From positions 115,595-179,594 of IMG/VR virus record IMGVR_UViG_3300033405_000002: a stretch of DNA of 64,000 nucleotides; one strand, 5' to 3'. This document shows positions 8,792 through 13,076 of the stretch, in pieces. This stretch comes from a virus. Its lineage: Duplodnaviria; Heunggongvirae; Uroviricota; Caudoviricetes. A program made the position numbers and the translations under genes. Positions within the stretch are counted from its first letter, which is position 1; the number at the start of each line of letters is the position of its first letter. Under the pieces are notes generated by a model. It did no database searches. It was not told the origin of the DNA and saw nothing but the letters and a program-made list of their open reading frames with translations.

Positions 8792-9034
8792 ATGGACGAG
8801 AAATTTCAAACCGCGTTCCCGGAAGACACGCTCCCAGAACCAGACGGAGTGGCATGTTATTACGGCTGCGGTCGGGCCGCGAAGTACGGAAACATGGGGC
8901 CCAGCTTCAACCAGAACCCGCACGATCCGCCACGGTGTTCTCCAAGGATGAGTGATTGTCCTGCTGTTAGGGGAACCGCTTTACGCGCTGCGAGACGTGC
9001 AGGACGTTTGGGCGGCGGGCGCGGACGCTTCTGA
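8792..9034 (+). CDS. Cys-rich putative Zn-finger microprotein, paralogue 2
   Basis: MDEKFQTAFPEDT...CYYGCGR...RCS...DCPAVR; clear paralogue of 7805..8032 with identical CATCAGTATG start context. Confidence 0.75.
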   Translation: MDEKFQTAFPEDTLPEPDGVACYYGCGRAAKYGNMGPSFNQNPHDPPRCSPRMSDCPAVRGTALRAARRAGRLGGGRGRF

Positions 9035-9178
9035 ATCAAGCTGATCGGCAACCCACTGGTGCGCCGTATGCTGCCATGTTGGTCTGTGACCCTTCTTGCG
9101 GACACAACGGTGTACGGGCCATGTGCTATCGAGGCTGAATCCGATGCAATACTCTTCGTTGCAGAGTTCCATAAAGTT

Positions 9179-9252
9179 TGGTAGCCCTAAGGGGAATCGA
9201 ACCCCTGTTATCGGATTGAGAGTCCGGCTTCCTGCCACTAGAAGATAGGGCC
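9179..9252 (-). tRNA. tRNA-Glu(CTC)
   Basis: Cloverleaf, anticodon arm CCGGA-CT-CTC-AA-TCCGA, GGTTCGATT T-loop, encoded CCA. Confidence 0.9.
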
Positions 9253-9642
9253 ATGTTTCAAAGCGTATAGTTCACGACGGCGTGCAAGCCATTTCTCACG
9301 TTTGACCGGATCACTATACATCTTTGCAAATTTTTTCCGTGCTTGCTCGCGGCGATCTATTATTCTTGGTCTCGATCTTCTCGCACCGGAGTTGCATTTT
9401 TTGTGAGAAGCCGCGAGATTCTCCAAATCCCAATACAACGCGGTGCTAACATGCAGCCATGCTTGCTTATGATCCACCGAAAACGTAGCAAGCGTTTCAA
9501 TTCTCTTGCCACAGCGATAACAAGCGTCTTTCCCGGCGTCTTGAAGCAGCTTAAAAAGCCACATTCGAAGCAGCTTTACAGCGGCCGTCCGTCCGTGCAT
9601 ACCCAGTTGTGCGTCTTTCGTCTCTTTCGATCCCATGTACAC
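9238..9642 (-). CDS. HNH endonuclease
   Basis: CYRCG...FSVDHKQAW...DLENLAASHKKCN; stop codon lies inside tRNA-Glu. Confidence 0.8.
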   Translation of the reverse strand: MYMGSKETKDAQLGMHGRTAAVKLLRMWLFKLLQDAGKDACYRCGKRIETLATFSVDHKQAWLHVSTALYWDLENLAASHKKCNSGARRSRPRIIDRREQARKKFAKMYSDPVKREKWLARRRELYALKHGPIF

Positions 9643-9663
9643 TAATACTGGTTAGACGAAATT

Positions 9664-9727
9664 TGGTGGACCTAGAGGGAATTGAACCCCCGACGGGCAA
9701 CGTCCTAGGCCGCTAGACGAACGCGCC
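9664..9727 (-). pseudogene. Chimeric anticodon-less tRNA (Glu/Asp-type 5' half fused to Ala-type 3' half)
   Basis: GGCGCGTTCGTCTAGCGGCCTAGGACGTTGCCC joined to GTCGGGGGTTCAATTCCCTCTAGGTCCACCA; no anticodon loop, acceptor strands do not pair. Confidence 0.7.
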
Positions 9728-9732
9728 AAACT

Positions 9733-9808
9733 TGGTGGACCTTGTCGGGCTCGAACCGACCACCTCGTGCTTGCAAAGCACGCGCTCTCCCAGATGAGCT
9801 AAAGGCCC
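9733..9808 (-). tRNA. tRNA-Ala(TGC)
   Basis: CGTGC-TT-TGC-AA-GCACG; G3:U70; CCA. Confidence 0.95.
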
Positions 9809-9879
9809 GCGTGGTGCTTTCTGTGGCAGTTCGCGCACAGAAGATCAATCCATTCACACCGTACAATTGTTCCATCTAT
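9802..9879 (-). pseudogene. C-terminal remnant of an HNH endonuclease gene
   Basis: Frame reads IDGTIVRCEWIDLLCANCHRKHHAGL*, preceded by in-frame TAG and no start; LLCANCHR is the typical HNH terminal motif. Confidence 0.5.
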
Positions 9880-9881
9880 CT

Positions 9882-9890
9882 ATTATACCA
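9882..9890 (-). promoter_or_regulatory. Putative extended -10 promoter (TGGTATAAT) inside tRNA array
   Basis: Exact TGnTATAAT match in an intergenic spacer. Confidence 0.4.
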
Positions 9891-9895
9891 GAACT

Positions 9896-9970
9896 TGGAG
9901 CGGGAAACGGGATTCGAACCCGCGACAACTTGCTTGGGAAGCAAGGACTCTACCACTGAGCTATTCCCGC
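9896..9970 (-). tRNA. tRNA-Gly(CCC)
   Basis: CTTGC-TT-CCC-AA-GCAAG; CCA. Confidence 0.95.
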
Positions 9971-9976
9971 AAAACT

Positions 9977-10051
9977 TGGAGCGGACAGCGGGATTCGAAC
10001 CCGCGACCCCCGCCTTGGCAAGGCGATGTTCTACCGCTGAACTATGTCCGC
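9977..10051 (-). tRNA. tRNA-Gly(GCC)
   Basis: TCGCC-TT-GCC-AA-GGCGG; CCA. Confidence 0.95.
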
Positions 10052-10066
10052 GTTACTACTTAATAC

Positions 10067-10142
10067 TGGTGCGCCGTGCAGGATTCGAACCTGCGACTCC
10101 GACCGTGTGAAAGTCGTACTCTGGCCTCTGAGTTAACAGCGC
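10067..10142 (-). tRNA. tRNA-Val(CAC)
   Basis: CGACT-TT-CAC-AC-GGTCG; CCA. Confidence 0.92.
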
Positions 10143-10150
10143 AACAAACT

Positions 10151-10207
10151 TGGTGGACGCTATGGGATTTGGCACCCAATTAAGCCGCCTTACCACTACG
10201 GACGCCC
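10151..10207 (-). pseudogene. Degenerate tRNA-like element ending in CCA
   Basis: GGGCGT...GCGTCC-A-CCA with G3:U70, D-loop-like TAGTGGTAAGGCG, altered T arm TGGG-TGCCAAAT-CCCA, no anticodon arm. Confidence 0.55.
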
Positions 10208-10249
10208 ATCTTTACAACAAACTCAGCATAAGCGGCGATAGCTGATTCT

Positions 10250-10327
10250 TGGTAGCGTTGACGGGAGTCGAACCCGCATTGTCCTGATTGAAAGTCAGGT
10301 TTCCTAGACCATTTAGAAGACAACGCC
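10250..10327 (-). tRNA. tRNA-Glu(TTC)
   Basis: CCTGA-CT-TTC-AA-TCAGG; CCA. Confidence 0.95.
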
Positions 10328-10333
10328 ATAACT

Positions 10334-10409
10334 TGGTGCGCCGTGCTGGACTCGAACCAGCGATCTCTGCCTTGTCATGGCAGCGATTTGGCCGCTAATC
10401 TAACAGCGC
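10334..10409 (-). tRNA. tRNA-Val(GAC)
   Basis: CTGCC-AT-GAC-AA-GGCAG; CCA. Confidence 0.93.
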
Positions 10410-10419
10410 ACATCAAACT

Positions 10420-10495
10420 TGGTGGAGCCGAGGGGAGTTGAACCCCTGACCTTCGCAGTGCGAGTGCGACGTTCTCCCAACTGAACTACGACCCC
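10420..10495 (-). tRNA. tRNA-Ala(CGC)
   Basis: TCGCA-CT-CGC-AC-TGCGA; G3:U70; CCA. Confidence 0.95.
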
Positions 10496-10496
10496 A

Positions 10497-10557
10497 TACA
10501 GGGCGGACATCGAACCCGCCGCTGGTGTTGCGTGCTCCCGACATCTGAGCACCTGTA
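10497..10557 (-). ncRNA. Anticodon-less tRNA mimic (acceptor + D arm + T arm, no CCA)
   Basis: TACAG/CTGTA closing stem, GCTC-AGATGTCGG-GAGC D arm, GGCGGG-TTCGATG-TCCGCC T arm, 13 nt unpaired linker replacing the anticodon arm. Confidence 0.55.
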
Positions 10558-10561
10558 AACT

Positions 10562-10637
10562 TGGTGGACCTAGTGAGATTCGAACTCACGACCTTTTCCA
10601 TGCCATGGAAACGCGCTCCCAACTGCGCTATAGGCCC
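10562..10637 (-). tRNA. tRNA-Ala(GGC)
   Basis: TTTCC-AT-GGC-AT-GGAAA; G3:U70; CCA. Confidence 0.93.
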
Positions 10638-10650
10638 ATACTTATAAATC

Positions 10651-10727
10651 TGGTAGCGCACGTGAGATTCGAACTCACATTTCACACGCTGAGAACGTGG
10701 TTGCCTAAACCGTTAGCAGAGTGCGCC
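10651..10727 (-). tRNA. tRNA-Glu(CTC), second copy
   Basis: CCACG-TT-CTC-AG-CGTGT (27-43 mismatch); CCA. Confidence 0.85.
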
Positions 10728-10742
10728 ACTTACTTCTTAATC

Positions 10743-10819
10743 TGGAGCGGGCGGGGGGATTTGAACCCCTCATCCGAAGCTTGGAAGGCTCCTATTCTGC
10801 CAGATTGAACTACGCCCGC
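10743..10819 (-). tRNA. tRNA-Gly(TCC)
   Basis: GGAGC-CT-TCC-AA-GCTTC; CCA. Confidence 0.95.
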
Positions 10820-10828
10820 AAATTTTAG

Positions 10829-11121
10829 TATCAAGCCTGTAGCCGGGATTCTGTCGTGGACGACCATTCGTCTAGGCGCTGCATCGCTGCAACGCTCAAG
10901 CACGCTACCCGCTGATTCATAACGGATCGAGCCGATCCTGTCAGCCTATTTGCGCTTGCACCGCGTAGAGATTGCCCGTTTCACCCGCACTTAAGCGGCT
11001 CGTCTCTGTTGCTCTAATCGTCATCGGCTTTCACCGATGCGTGGGAGTTGCCCACTACGCTGCTCTACGGTGTCCCGAACTTCCTCCCCCGCTTGCGCGG
11101 CGGCGGTCGTCCAGCTTGATA
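10829..11121 (-). ncRNA. rnpB: RNase P RNA (bacterial A-type catalytic domain, P13/P14 absent)
   Basis: P1 TATCAAGCT/GGCTTGATA; P2 GGACGACC/GGTCGTCC; P4 GAGGAAGTTCGGGA with ACAGAATCCCGGCTA and bulged U; AGAGCAACAGAGA and GGGTGAAAC S-domain motifs; GCAAG...CAAATAGG, GGGTAG (L15), GCTTGAG, CTAGACGAATG conserved runs. Confidence 0.92.
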
Positions 11122-11125
11122 CATT

Positions 11126-11202
11126 TGGAGGACTGGGTGGGAGTCGAACCCACTCTCTACTCCTTTGCAGGGAGAGCCTTCCTACCGTTCAGGTTCCAAT
11201 CC
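11126..11202 (-). tRNA. tRNA-Cys(GCA)
   Basis: TCTCC-CT-GCA-AA-GGAGT; U73; CCA. Confidence 0.85.
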
Positions 11203-11289
11203 AAACTCAACGCACGACCCCTGTTACAAAAAAGCGCGGGATCGGCGAATGCTGTTGTGCGCTACGCTCATACACACAACAATCTATCT

Positions 11290-11364
11290 TGGCGGTGACG
11301 ACGAGATTTGAACTCGCATCCTGCCCCGTGACAGGGGGAAACTCTACCATTAAGCTACGTCACC
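11290..11364 (-). tRNA. tRNA-Asp(GTC)
   Basis: TCCCC-CT-GTC-AC-GGGGC; G73; CCA. Confidence 0.9.
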
Positions 11365-11370
11365 AAAACT

Positions 11371-11448
11371 TGGCGGGGTGTACGGGACTTGAACCCGTGA
11401 TCTCTTCCGTGACAGGGAAGCGTGAACTCCAGACTTCACCAACACCCC
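11371..11448 (-). tRNA. tRNA-Asp(GTC), second copy
   Basis: CTTCC-CT-GTC-AC-GGAAG; G73; CCA. Confidence 0.93.
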
Positions 11449-11451
11449 AAC

Positions 11452-11526
11452 TGGAAGCCGGGACGGGGATCGAACCCGCGAATAATGGTTTTGCAGACCA
11501 TCGCCTTACCACTTGGCTACCCGGCT
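11452..11526 (-). tRNA. tRNA-Cys(GCA), second copy
   Basis: ATGGT-CT-GCA-AA-ACCAT; U73; CCA. Confidence 0.92.
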
Positions 11527-11536
11527 TACATCGAAA

Positions 11537-11640
11537 TTTAGCCCGGATGCTCAAAGAGCCTGACGCTCTAACACCGTGCCCTATGGCTCGTAAGCCCTAT
11601 GGCATCGGCTGCTCTCGCCGTCCGGGACGGCACACCTAAA
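11537..11640 (-). ncRNA. Unassigned structured RNA candidate within tRNA array
   Basis: Closing stems TTTAG/CTAAA and CCCGGA/TCCGGG enclose three hairpins, one built from a 10 nt direct repeat (GCCCTATGGC at 11578 and 11594). Confidence 0.4.
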
Positions 11641-11641
11641 C

Positions 11642-11716
11642 TGGTGGACACAGGGAGATTCGAACTCCATCCTTCTCATTGCAAGTGAGACGCATTCCCA
11701 ATTATGCTACTGGCCC
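11642..11716 (-). tRNA. tRNA-Ala(TGC), atypical second copy
   Basis: TCTCA-CT-TGC-AA-TGAGA; acceptor stem needs a bulge or has two mismatches; CCA. Confidence 0.75.
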
Positions 11717-11718
11717 AT

Positions 11719-11797
11719 TGGTAGTCTGGGTGGGACTCGAACCCACGGTAATCGCTGTTTGTAAGACAGCGGGCATCGCCACTCGCTCCACCAGACC
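11719..11797 (-). tRNA. tRNA-Val(TAC)
   Basis: GCTGT-CT-TAC-AA-ACAGC; GGTCTGG/CCAGACT acceptor; CCA. Confidence 0.88.
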
Positions 11798-11808
11798 ACA
11801 TTTACCGC

Positions 11809-11841
11809 AAAAACAAAAAGGACGCTCGATTTGAGCGTCCT
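11809..11841 (-). terminator. Intrinsic terminator (attenuator hairpin) immediately upstream of first tRNA
   Basis: AGGACGCTC-AAATC-GAGCGTCCT 9 bp stem followed by TTTTGTTTTT. Confidence 0.85.
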
Positions 11842-11888
11842 CGTGATTCGAACTTGTCAGGTCTTAGCCGACTCGAATCTCCGAGGAC
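11837..11888 (-). promoter_or_regulatory. Antiterminator helix overlapping the terminator 5' arm
   Basis: GTCCTCG-GA-GATTCGA (11888-11873) pairs with TCGAATC-A-CGAGGAC (11851-11837), 14 bp. Confidence 0.75.
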
Positions 11889-11989
11889 ATGGTATCTCCT
11901 GCCGCCGCGCAAGCGGCGACCGTACCACGTTCACACACGACTGCTACAGTCGCGGCGGAAACATTCGTGTTGGCGTAAGTGTTGTTCAT
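11864..11989 (-). CDS. Putative attenuator leader peptide (41 aa) MNNTYANTNVSAATVAVVCERGTVAACAAAGDTMSSEIRVG
   Basis: Hand-translated ATG 11989 to TAA 11864; 23/41 codons are Ala/Val/Gly/Glu/Asp/Cys; stop lies 22 nt before the terminator. Confidence 0.75.
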   Translation of the reverse strand: MNNTYANTNVSAATVAVVCERGTVAACAAAGDTMSSEIRVG

Positions 11990-12020
11990 GACTCTAACCT
12001 GATACTCGATATTCGCAAAA

Positions 12021-12047
12021 CCTGTGCGAATTGTCAATCAAAAAGTT
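12021..12047 (-). promoter_or_regulatory. Putative promoter -35 (TTGACA) followed by a 7-7-7 inverted repeat operator
   Basis: TTGACA at 12047-12042; ATTCGCA-N7-TGCGAAT at 12021-12041; no consensus -10 at 17 bp. Confidence 0.4.
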
Positions 12048-12245
12048 GTTCCCCCTATCTAACGCGACCTTTCAGCTTCGGTGAATCTCTGCTGAAGGCG
12101 GGGGCTGCGCGACATGCTCGGGGCTATTCACACCCTTTCGTCCCTTGGGCAGATTCTCCTCTTAGGAACAAGCAGCGGTCTATCGCAGGCTTAAATCAAT
12201 CTCTCATGTATGATACTGGAAGTCAAGCAATTTCGCAAAAGTTAT

Positions 12246-12267
12246 GGCCCCGGTGATTGCCGGGGCC
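12246..12267 (-). terminator. Probable terminator after sigma factor gene
   Basis: GGCCCCGG-CAATCA-CCGGGGCC followed by ATAACTTTT. Confidence 0.55.
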
Positions 12268-12312
12268 GTTAGCCGTGGTTTCCGAGGCCGTAGCCTAGTG
12301 CGGATTTCTCAC

Positions 12313-13026
12313 CTAATCCGCTGTCACATCCAGTATACGGGACTGCTGGCAGATTTGGCTAGGAATTCTGGAATTTTTTTCCACCTGCTCTATCAACAAC
12401 TTACGCGCTCTCAGGAGCCGGGACTTTACTGCGGACAGCCGGACCTTCTTCCCGGCACTCAGGTTGAGCACTTGCCGAATATCTTCCACGGTCAAGCCTT
12501 CCCAGAAGCGAAGGTGCAGGATGTCGCGGTACGGCGCTGGCATCCGTTTGATCGCCATGTCAAGGACTTGACGATCCGCTAGTCCTTCCAGATCGAGGTC
12601 GCGGAGAGACAACCGTTCAACCAGCTTCGCCGGGACTTTATTGTGTTCAGGGCCAGTGCCATGCGTCCCTGTGGAAACCATCAGGCTGTCGAGTGAAACT
12701 TCGTTGGCGCGGCGCAGCGCGTTGCCGTGGCGTTTCTGCATCAGAGCTTCGTTGATTGCGATTCGCGTTACCCACGTGCTGAACTTGGACTTCTCATCGA
12801 AAGACGGCAGCTTTTCCCAAACCTTCGTCAGAGCGAGATTCGCTGTCCACTGTGACAGGTCTTCACATTGCAGAAATCGGTTGATGACGGCACAGACTCG
12901 CGCATAGTGGTGGTTGTAGAGCGCCGTGAACGCGGCTTCACTACCAGCCTTCGCTTGGCGCACCAGTTGAAGTTCTTCCGGGGAATCGTAAATTTTCTTC
13001 GCTCTTGCTGCGGCAACTGATGCCAT
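12313..13026 (-). CDS. ECF-type (sigma-70 family group 4) RNA polymerase sigma factor
   Basis: Region 2 AKAGSEAAFTALY...KVWEKLPSFDEKSKFSTWVTRIAINEAL; region 4 ILHLRFWEGLTVEDI...VKSRLLRARK; AGGAG upstream of ATG 13026. Confidence 0.9.
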   Translation of the reverse strand: MASVAAARAKKIYDSPEELQLVRQAKAGSEAAFTALYNHHYARVCAVINRFLQCEDLSQWTANLALTKVWEKLPSFDEKSKFSTWVTRIAINEALMQKRHGNALRRANEVSLDSLMVSTGTHGTGPEHNKVPAKLVERLSLRDLDLEGLADRQVLDMAIKRMPAPYRDILHLRFWEGLTVEDIRQVLNLSAGKKVRLSAVKSRLLRARKLLIEQVEKNSRIPSQICQQSRILDVTAD

Positions 13027-13076
13027 TCGGTCGTCTCCTATCAAGAACCAGTATACAAAGCCAGATGAATTTTTGG

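Follow-up and report, generated by a model that had tools for sequence, protein, structure and literature searches.

The closest described counterparts of the element reported here are the multivalent attenuators of enterobacteria, namely the leaders of ilvGMEDA (Ile/Leu/Val) and thrL (Thr/Ile). Leader-peptide attenuation is textbook matter for amino-acid biosynthesis and is known for a few synthetase or stress genes as well. The tRNA blocks of large phages are thought to offset depletion or cleavage of host tRNAs, and such arrays have been treated as simply transcribed. The locus considered here lies in a 64,000-nt stretch of DNA (the window), corresponding to bases 115595-179594 of the 332.3-kb Caudoviricetes record IMGVR_UViG_3300033405_000002 (53% G+C), a record that occurs in peat metagenome runs. 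In front of an array of tRNA genes with an embedded RNase P RNA gene, it combines a short open reading frame (ORF), an antiterminator-like stem-loop and a U-tailed terminator. We read it, at a probability of roughly 0.77, as a ribosome-mediated (leader-peptide) transcription attenuator that gates this Val/Ala/Gly/Glu/Asp/Cys tRNA array including the RNase P RNA. The reading is carried by the anatomy of the leader, by its conservation, by the covariation of its helices and by a match between leader codons and array content that is seen over several arrays and genomes. Unless stated otherwise, coordinates count along the window and features lie on its minus strand.

As in the ilv and thr leaders, the phage leader is short, rich in the codons of several amino acids and, by prediction, translated, with the position of the ribosome serving as the signal; likewise, the 3' end of the leader is part of an antiterminator that would exclude an intrinsic terminator just before the first controlled gene. 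Unlike in these systems, the targets are tRNAs and RNase P RNA instead of biosynthetic enzymes, and six amino acids are covered, with the synonymous codons spread over isoacceptors (a Watson-Crick codon is present in the window leader for 11 of the 13 anticodon species of the array). Also different are the two-hairpin layout without a clear 1:2 protector, the phage-borne location, an overlap between the hairpins of only 4-5 nt, and the lack of any Rfam leader match. The E. coli phenylalanyl-tRNA synthetase operon pheST, with its pheM leader, is likewise a leader-peptide attenuator that adjusts a component of translation upon slow cognate decoding, but its target is a protein (an aminoacyl-tRNA synthetase), it responds to one amino acid and it is chromosomal. 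An earlier note on the window, which had proposed the attenuator, held that such elements control amino-acid biosynthesis genes; this overlooks pheST, while tRNA genes as a target still appear to be undescribed, as a full-text literature search of incomplete coverage returned no description of attenuators before tRNA genes or phage tRNA arrays. T-box riboswitches likewise sense a specific tRNA pool and choose between antiterminator and terminator before genes of translation supply. They differ in binding uncharged tRNA directly through a specifier codon, with no ribosome involved, whereas the phage element has a conserved reading frame and no T-box match. In purpose, pheST and the T-boxes come nearest to it, both serving the supply of translation. 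In mycobacteria, an Ala-rich upstream ORF that senses shortage of alanine or aminoacyl-tRNA controls whiB7; there the target is a transcription factor, one amino acid is sensed and the setting is a bacterial stress response (PMC10274678).

Direct reading of the window confirmed the leader ORF with the codon content that had been claimed for it: all four Ala codons (GCC, GCG, GCA, GCT), all four Val codons (GTT, GTA, GTC, GTG), both Glu (GAA, GAG) and both Cys codons (TGT, TGC), three Gly codons (GGT, GGA, GGC) and the Asp codon GAT, with 19 of codons 10-32 coming from this set. The 16 tRNAs that ARAGORN calls in the downstream array decode Val, Ala, Gly, Glu, Asp and Cys exclusively, so that the asserted identity of the leader set and the array set, Cys included, holds. 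Residues of these six amino acids make up 23 of 40 in the leader, against a background of 0.36 in long ORFs of the phage (p = 0.005). The first gene of the array is tRNA-Val(tac), the 5' end of which (11797) lies 11 nt past the T-tract of the terminator; both the short spacing and the 9-bp U-tailed terminator had been read in essentially this form before (Table 1). The helix between 11888-11873 and 11851-11837, previously described as 14 bp long, was recovered as 7 + 7 bp flanking a 2 x 1 internal loop, and RNAfold extends it by 5 bp (11872-11868 with 11860-11856), giving the stem-loop -25.8 kcal/mol when the fold is truncated before the 3' arm of the terminator. What did not stand is the extent of sequestration: the helix takes up the basal 4-5 nt of the 5' arm of the terminator and not the whole arm. 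At the level of sequence, the anatomy agrees with that of leader-peptide attenuators in having an ORF, matching codons, a terminator and an overlapping antiterminator. Of 1000 dinucleotide shuffles, one produced an upstream helix of this stability that also extends over the terminator base.

Table 1. Coordinates of the leader, of the genes downstream and upstream of it, and of further tRNA blocks. Positions without prefix refer to the window.
Feature	Coordinates	Strand	Remarks
Promoter-like site	12009..12037	-	TTGACA (12037-12032), 17-nt spacer, GAATAT (12014-12009)
5' UTR (untranslated region) with Shine-Dalgarno-like AGG(A)	11990..12008	-	AGG 8 nt upstream of ATG; matches the conserved motif of the relatives, ..GTATCAGGATAGAGAC..
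Leader ORF	11864..11989	-	41 sense codons + TAA; ATG at 11989, TAA 11866-11864
Putative sensing stretch, codons 10-32	11894..11962	-	19/23 codons for Ala/Val/Gly/Glu/Asp/Cys
GC-rich hairpin inside ORF, codons 22-33	11891..11926	-	conserved; does not compete with the antiterminator
Predicted antiterminator stem-loop	11837..11888	-	5' arm 11888-11868 formed by last ORF codons; TAA in apical loop; 3' arm 11860-11837 overlaps terminator base
Predicted intrinsic terminator	11809..11842	-	9-10 bp stem 11842-11818 + T5GT5 tail ending at 11809; -15.6 kcal/mol
Putative controlled unit	9179-11797	-	16-17 tRNA genes for Val/Ala/Gly/Glu/Asp/Cys + embedded RNase P RNA + HNH ORF
17th tRNA-like gene	11129-11202	-	Rfam tRNA model, 48 bits; not called by ARAGORN
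RNase P class A RNA (bacterial)	10824-11122	-	189 bits; within the tRNA array, downstream of the putative attenuator
HNH-endonuclease ORF	9238-9642	-	inside the array, between tRNA-Ala(tgc) and last tRNA-Glu(ctc)
ECF-type sigma-70 family gene	12313-13044	-	directly upstream of leader; syntenic in all relatives examined
tRNA block Val/Ala/Gly/Glu/Asp/Cys	9179-11797	-	leader present
tRNA block Pro/Met/Phe	record		leader present
tRNA block Tyr/Leu	record		leader present
tRNA block Ile/Thr/Gln	record		leader present
tRNA block Gln/Lys/amber-suppressor	record		no leader
G001 array Ser(gct, gga, tga, cga) + Leu(taa)	L081/L082 regions, G001:C1:62300-64700 and 87100-94800		putatively leader-gated
G001 array Trp/His/Arg/Asn/Gln/Cys/Lys	L081/L082 regions, G001:C1:62300-64700 and 87100-94800		putatively leader-gated

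In the mechanism that we propose, transcription would start about 15-20 nt upstream of the ORF, the middle of which is written in codons read by the downstream tRNAs, and the last codons of which would double as the 5' arm of a stable stem-loop whose 3' arm takes in the basal nucleotides of the terminator. Provided that the ORF is translated and that ribosome and polymerase are kinetically coupled, fast decoding would let the ribosome arrive at the apical-loop TAA before the polymerase has left the terminator; the 5' arm would then be masked, the terminator would form and transcription would end 11 nt ahead of the first tRNA. If any cognate charged tRNA is scarce, the ribosome would lag at or before codon 30, the antiterminator would form and the polymerase would enter the array, the predicted outcome being a supply of tRNAs on demand. 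Ribosomes keep about 12 nt unwound 3' of the first A-site base. If this footprint is assumed for the leader, a ribosome at the TAA would mask the entire 5' arm and the apex (11888 to about 11854), leaving 11851-11837 free and permitting the terminator to form, while one that has stopped at codon 30 or earlier would end upstream of 11888, with the antiterminator undisturbed. With stalls at codons 31-33, outer pairs would already be opened, and from this arithmetic we infer a sensing stretch of codons 10-30, of which 17 of 21 belong to the set. The GC-rich hairpin inside the ORF (11926-11891) has no pairing to the antiterminator arm; it may act as a polymerase pause or synchronising hairpin that holds the polymerase for the ribosome.

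Relatives were found via homologues of the adjoining sigma factor and the contigs encoding them, followed by a pattern scan. The sigma factor has hundreds of homologues, and a search for related loci with the sigma protein alone returned none. Four contigs (98 to 458 kb; sigma copies 50-54% identical) share the order ribonucleotide reductase, sigma factor, gap, metallophosphatase, and in all four the gap is occupied by a tRNA array restricted to Val/Ala/Gly/Glu/Asp/Cys, which starts with Val(tac)-Ala(tgc) and has a homologous leader in front. The in-ORF hairpin is present in these four relatives, which were obtained independently of the pattern search. The conserved GC-rich hairpin then served as the query of the pattern scan, which matched 7 viral and 65 metagenome loci; about 30 of these 72 were discarded as chance matches within long GC-rich bacterial genes. 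This left 40 true leader loci, counting the window and the four sigma-derived ones, with 24 distinct sequences, all from soil and peat jumbo phages. At every locus with enough downstream sequence, the array contains only the six amino acids Val, Ala, Gly, Glu, Asp and Cys.

Conservation of the leader frame, which the earlier note had proposed to look for, is evident from these relatives. In the variable part between start and hairpin, frame 0 is free of stops in 24 of 24 leaders, compared with stops in 20 and 14 of 24 in the two other frames. For 22 of the 24 relatives the position of the 5'-UTR motif could be assigned (for the other two it was missed or misplaced); the first ATG that follows it, counting all three frames, is in register with the hairpin codons in each of these 22. 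The distance from ATG to hairpin takes 10 values between 45 and 87 nt, each divisible by three, and the same divisibility applies to the five values of the hairpin-to-stop distance; the stop itself is an invariant TAA situated in the apical loop of the antiterminator (24/24). Within the variable part, the peptide sequence is poorly conserved while its composition is kept, codons of the set amounting to 48% as against 20% in the other frames, and a Cys codon occurs in 24 of 24 leaders, Cys being rare in the phage (1.2%). As far as sequence comparison can tell, a conserved frame and composition without conserved sequence is the signature expected of a sensor ORF, not of a functional peptide or an untranslated RNA.

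The structural elements are retained to the same extent. In 24 of 24 relatives, per-sequence folds truncated before the 3' arm of the terminator gave -24 to -33 kcal/mol for the antiterminator, and the terminators themselves have -12 to -22 kcal/mol. In all of them the final ORF codons make up the 5' arm of the antiterminator, and its 3' arm shares 4-7 nt with the 5' arm of the terminator. Across these 24, the T-tract is conserved and the upper stem of the terminator covaries. At least five complementary forms of the outer antiterminator helix occur, among them GUCCUCGGA/UCCGAGGAC, GUCCUUCGGA/UCCGAGGGAC and GUCCCUUGGA/UCCAAGGGAC, and at one pair of this helix RNAalifold registered double changes from CG to UA. 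The inner helix is different in nearly every lineage and still complementary; MAFFT combined with RNAalifold recovered the outer helix only, because indels misalign the inner one. Since indels defeat a column-wise count, we swapped 5' and 3' halves among 19 distinct versions, which yielded a mean of -28.1 kcal/mol for native combinations versus -22.2 kcal/mol for chimeras (permutation p <= 5e-5). Together with the compensatory changes in the outer helix, this bears out the expectation of covarying helices. None of the 24 relatives keeps the terminator while losing the antiterminator complementarity, the loss that the earlier note had named as speaking against its proposal.

That the alternative helices are the best-conserved feature of the leader would also suit a switch that works independently of translation and responds to a protein or RNA ligand, such as an antiterminator protein of the phage or uncharged tRNA bound in the manner of a T-box, the ORF then being incidental. 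In the antiterminator of the window, the closing stem is GC-rich and 7 bp long and a T-loop-like GTTCGAATC is present, and an ECF-type sigma gene always adjoins the leader, features that would fit such a ligand-operated device. We nevertheless regard it as very unlikely. Rfam at gathering scores found no leader-family or T-box match in the window, and even at E <= 1 the interval 11800-12320 returned nothing beyond one chance hairpin match, with no T-box or other leader among the results. The T-loop-like motif is not conserved in the relatives, and frame, start and stop have been kept through many indels, a conservation for which an RNA-only element has no need.

Further evidence for ribosome-mediated attenuation comes from the other tRNA blocks. 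ARAGORN finds about 50 tRNA genes across the full record, arranged in five blocks sorted by amino acid; no tRNAs for Ser, Arg, His, Asn or Trp were found in the 332-kb genome. Three further array heads show the same order of promoter, short ORF and U-tailed terminator, with the first tRNA directly behind and each ORF using the amino acids of its own array. The Pro/Met/Phe leader contains the run ..RPFTMFRP.., the Tyr/Leu leader ..LSLALLYTLL.. and the Ile/Thr/Gln leader ..TQTTRTTTTQRIIT... When the four leaders were set against the four arrays in a 4 x 4 matrix, each diagonal cell was the best in its row and column, and the true assignment ranked first of 24 (combined p = 3.4e-7). In the Tyr/Leu and Ile/Thr/Gln leaders, moreover, the 3' end of the ORF pairs with the 5' arm of the terminator in truncated folds (z = -3.8 and -4.8).

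Matched leaders also occur in G001, a 463-kb record from which one of the relatives comes and which has putatively leader-gated arrays missing from the 332-kb genome (Table 1). In front of its Ser/Leu array, the leader reads ..SSLSSSSSS.. (p = 1.6e-4 for the enrichment of Ser); it draws on TTA and on each of the six Ser codons, and a U-tailed terminator comes after it. The leader of the Trp/His/Arg/Asn/Gln/Cys/Lys array has 12 of 15 consecutive residues from the array set. The suggestion that codon sets track array content has thus been substantiated both within the genome and beyond it. As the Ser and the Lys/His/Asn-type sets of G001 are not GC-rich, the match between leader and array cannot be a by-product of a GC-rich hairpin.

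Two side observations concern these further leaders. The three other leaders of the genome share a phage-type promoter motif, GGACAA-N16-GTATAC.., which is also present elsewhere in the genome and differs from that of the window leader; an exact search for this motif returned only unrelated AT-rich contigs without tRNAs. The stop of the Pro/Met/Phe leader (G000:C1:78259-78432, minus strand, outside the window) is TAG, and the phage carries tRNAs with a CUA anticodon. It is possible that suppression of this TAG would send the ribosome through the putative terminator stem, which would constitute a second input to that attenuator.

Several observations weigh against an attenuator of the kind proposed. 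The antiterminator covers only the basal 4-5 nt of the 9-nt 5' arm of the terminator, the pairs adjoining the U-tract. The stem base next to the U-tract is the part whose closure termination needs. The partial overlap is the weakest link of the model, though the sequestered nucleotides are precisely this stem base. Because only 4-5 nt are shared and a shortened antiterminator can coexist with the terminator, the choice between the two would have to depend on kinetics, as it does in classical attenuators. When ribosome footprints were simulated in equilibrium folding, the terminator stayed probable in most states, and a clean switch was absent for the GNN and Ile/Thr/Gln leaders; attenuation being kinetic, this result does not decide the matter. 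The conserved GC-rich hairpin inside the ORF, at the same time the query of the pattern scan, contributes part of the GCN/GTN richness of the leader. The terminator and structure of the Pro/Met/Phe leader are less clear, and the head of the Gln/Lys/suppressor array has no leader. The -10 element of the leader promoter is weak by consensus: a consensus promoter scan did not call the site at 12009-12037, its second hexamer matching 3 of 6 positions. A TTGACA-N17-[GT]A[AC]TAT arrangement occurs at the equivalent site in relatives, and it is this conservation that suggests a promoter function. Finally, there is no obvious protector (1:2-type) pairing, and as a consequence an untranslated leader may default to read-through.

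Alternatively, the leader could be an independent micro-gene that encodes a small protein and ends in its own terminator or insulator, the array being reached by leaky read-through or from other promoters and the likeness of codons being a by-product of GC structure. A GC-rich hairpin indeed yields GCC, GCG and GTC codons automatically in the leader frame, and termination is what the equilibrium folds favour. An additional 0.4-0.7 kb lies between the terminator and the first tRNA in five distinct relatives (L005, L006, L066, L068, L070), the insert of L005 and L006 containing HNH-like (endonuclease-like) or HTH-bearing ORFs. We consider a micro-gene highly improbable all the same. The 11 nt from T-tract to first tRNA leave no room for a promoter, outside the structured part it is the composition that is conserved and not the peptide sequence, and the stop always falls into the loop of a helix that overlaps the terminator. 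Matched leaders for AT-richer sets (Ser, Thr/Gln/Ile, Lys/Asn/His) are likewise left unexplained by GC structure.

In another alternative, the leader would still be an attenuator but would report overall ribosome availability or speed, for instance any slowdown during host shut-off or under a ribosome-targeting defence, instead of the supply of the specific tRNAs, with codon bias as secondary tuning. Since the two-hairpin design lacks a protector helix, the antiterminator should gain from any delay of the ribosome and equally from a complete lack of translation, and the first 8-9 codons of the leader lie outside the set. Such a generic coupling of transcription to translation appears unlikely to us, because under it there is no need for at least six leaders to differ in codon set, each fitting its own array. 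Nor would it call for the rare Cys codon in 24 of 24 leaders of an array bearing tRNA-Cys, or for TTA beside six Ser codons where the array includes Leu(taa). We retain codon-specific attenuation as the preferred explanation.

The immediate surroundings of the leader contain a number of further elements. An RNase P RNA was found at the equivalent position within the array in 5 of 5 relatives tested (L007, L008, L020, L034, L051). Between tRNA-Ala(tgc) and tRNA-Cys lies a 119-nt spacer (11527-11645, minus strand) without a called gene but with structured-looking sequence. Immediately upstream of the leader -35 element, a hairpin closed by G5/C5 and followed by a T-run (12046-12110, minus strand) is probably the terminator of the preceding unit; L007 and L017 share it with a different inner stem. 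Another terminator-like hairpin is located at 12267-12246. The 176-nt spacer upstream of the leader promoter folds no better than shuffles (z = -0.03). Elsewhere in the genome, the Gln/Lys/suppressor block (G000:C1:191380-192490, plus strand, outside the window) begins 6 nt past a protein gene, and among its members are tRNA-like genes that carry long insertions. In blastn, window positions 9000-13000 showed similarity to cultured phages at the tRNA level only, and tblastn with the neighbouring 979-aa protein gave distant matches only, which indicates that there is no close cultured relative.

On a broader level, the leaders of this clade of jumbo phages might form a modular homeostat of tRNA supply, with operons arranged by amino-acid group and each equipped with a multi-codon ribosomal sensor that samples nearly every controlled isoacceptor, such that a drop in one functional tRNA would induce exactly its operon. 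We put this forward tentatively and with more doubt than conviction, and the same applies to its consequence for the window, where RNase P RNA, needed for tRNA maturation, would be switched on alongside the tRNAs. Possible triggers of such a homeostat include anticodon-nuclease or tRNA-depletion defences of the host, shut-off of host tRNA synthesis and a mismatch in codon usage. Host anticodon nucleases, which the earlier note had offered as an example of a trigger for the window leader, are speculation at this point.

The module occurs widely in metagenomes of soil and peat, with 40 loci retrieved through one narrow pattern search, and it could provide compact, natural sensors of how fast chosen codons are decoded. 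If our reading is true, the logic of attenuation would close a loop on tRNA supply, as the sensor would read the very class of products that is under its control, and a ribozyme gene, that of RNase P RNA, would come under translational sensing. It would also explain why the tRNA genes of these phages are sorted into amino-acid-specific blocks, and phage tRNA arrays would be regulated by demand instead of being expressed constitutively.

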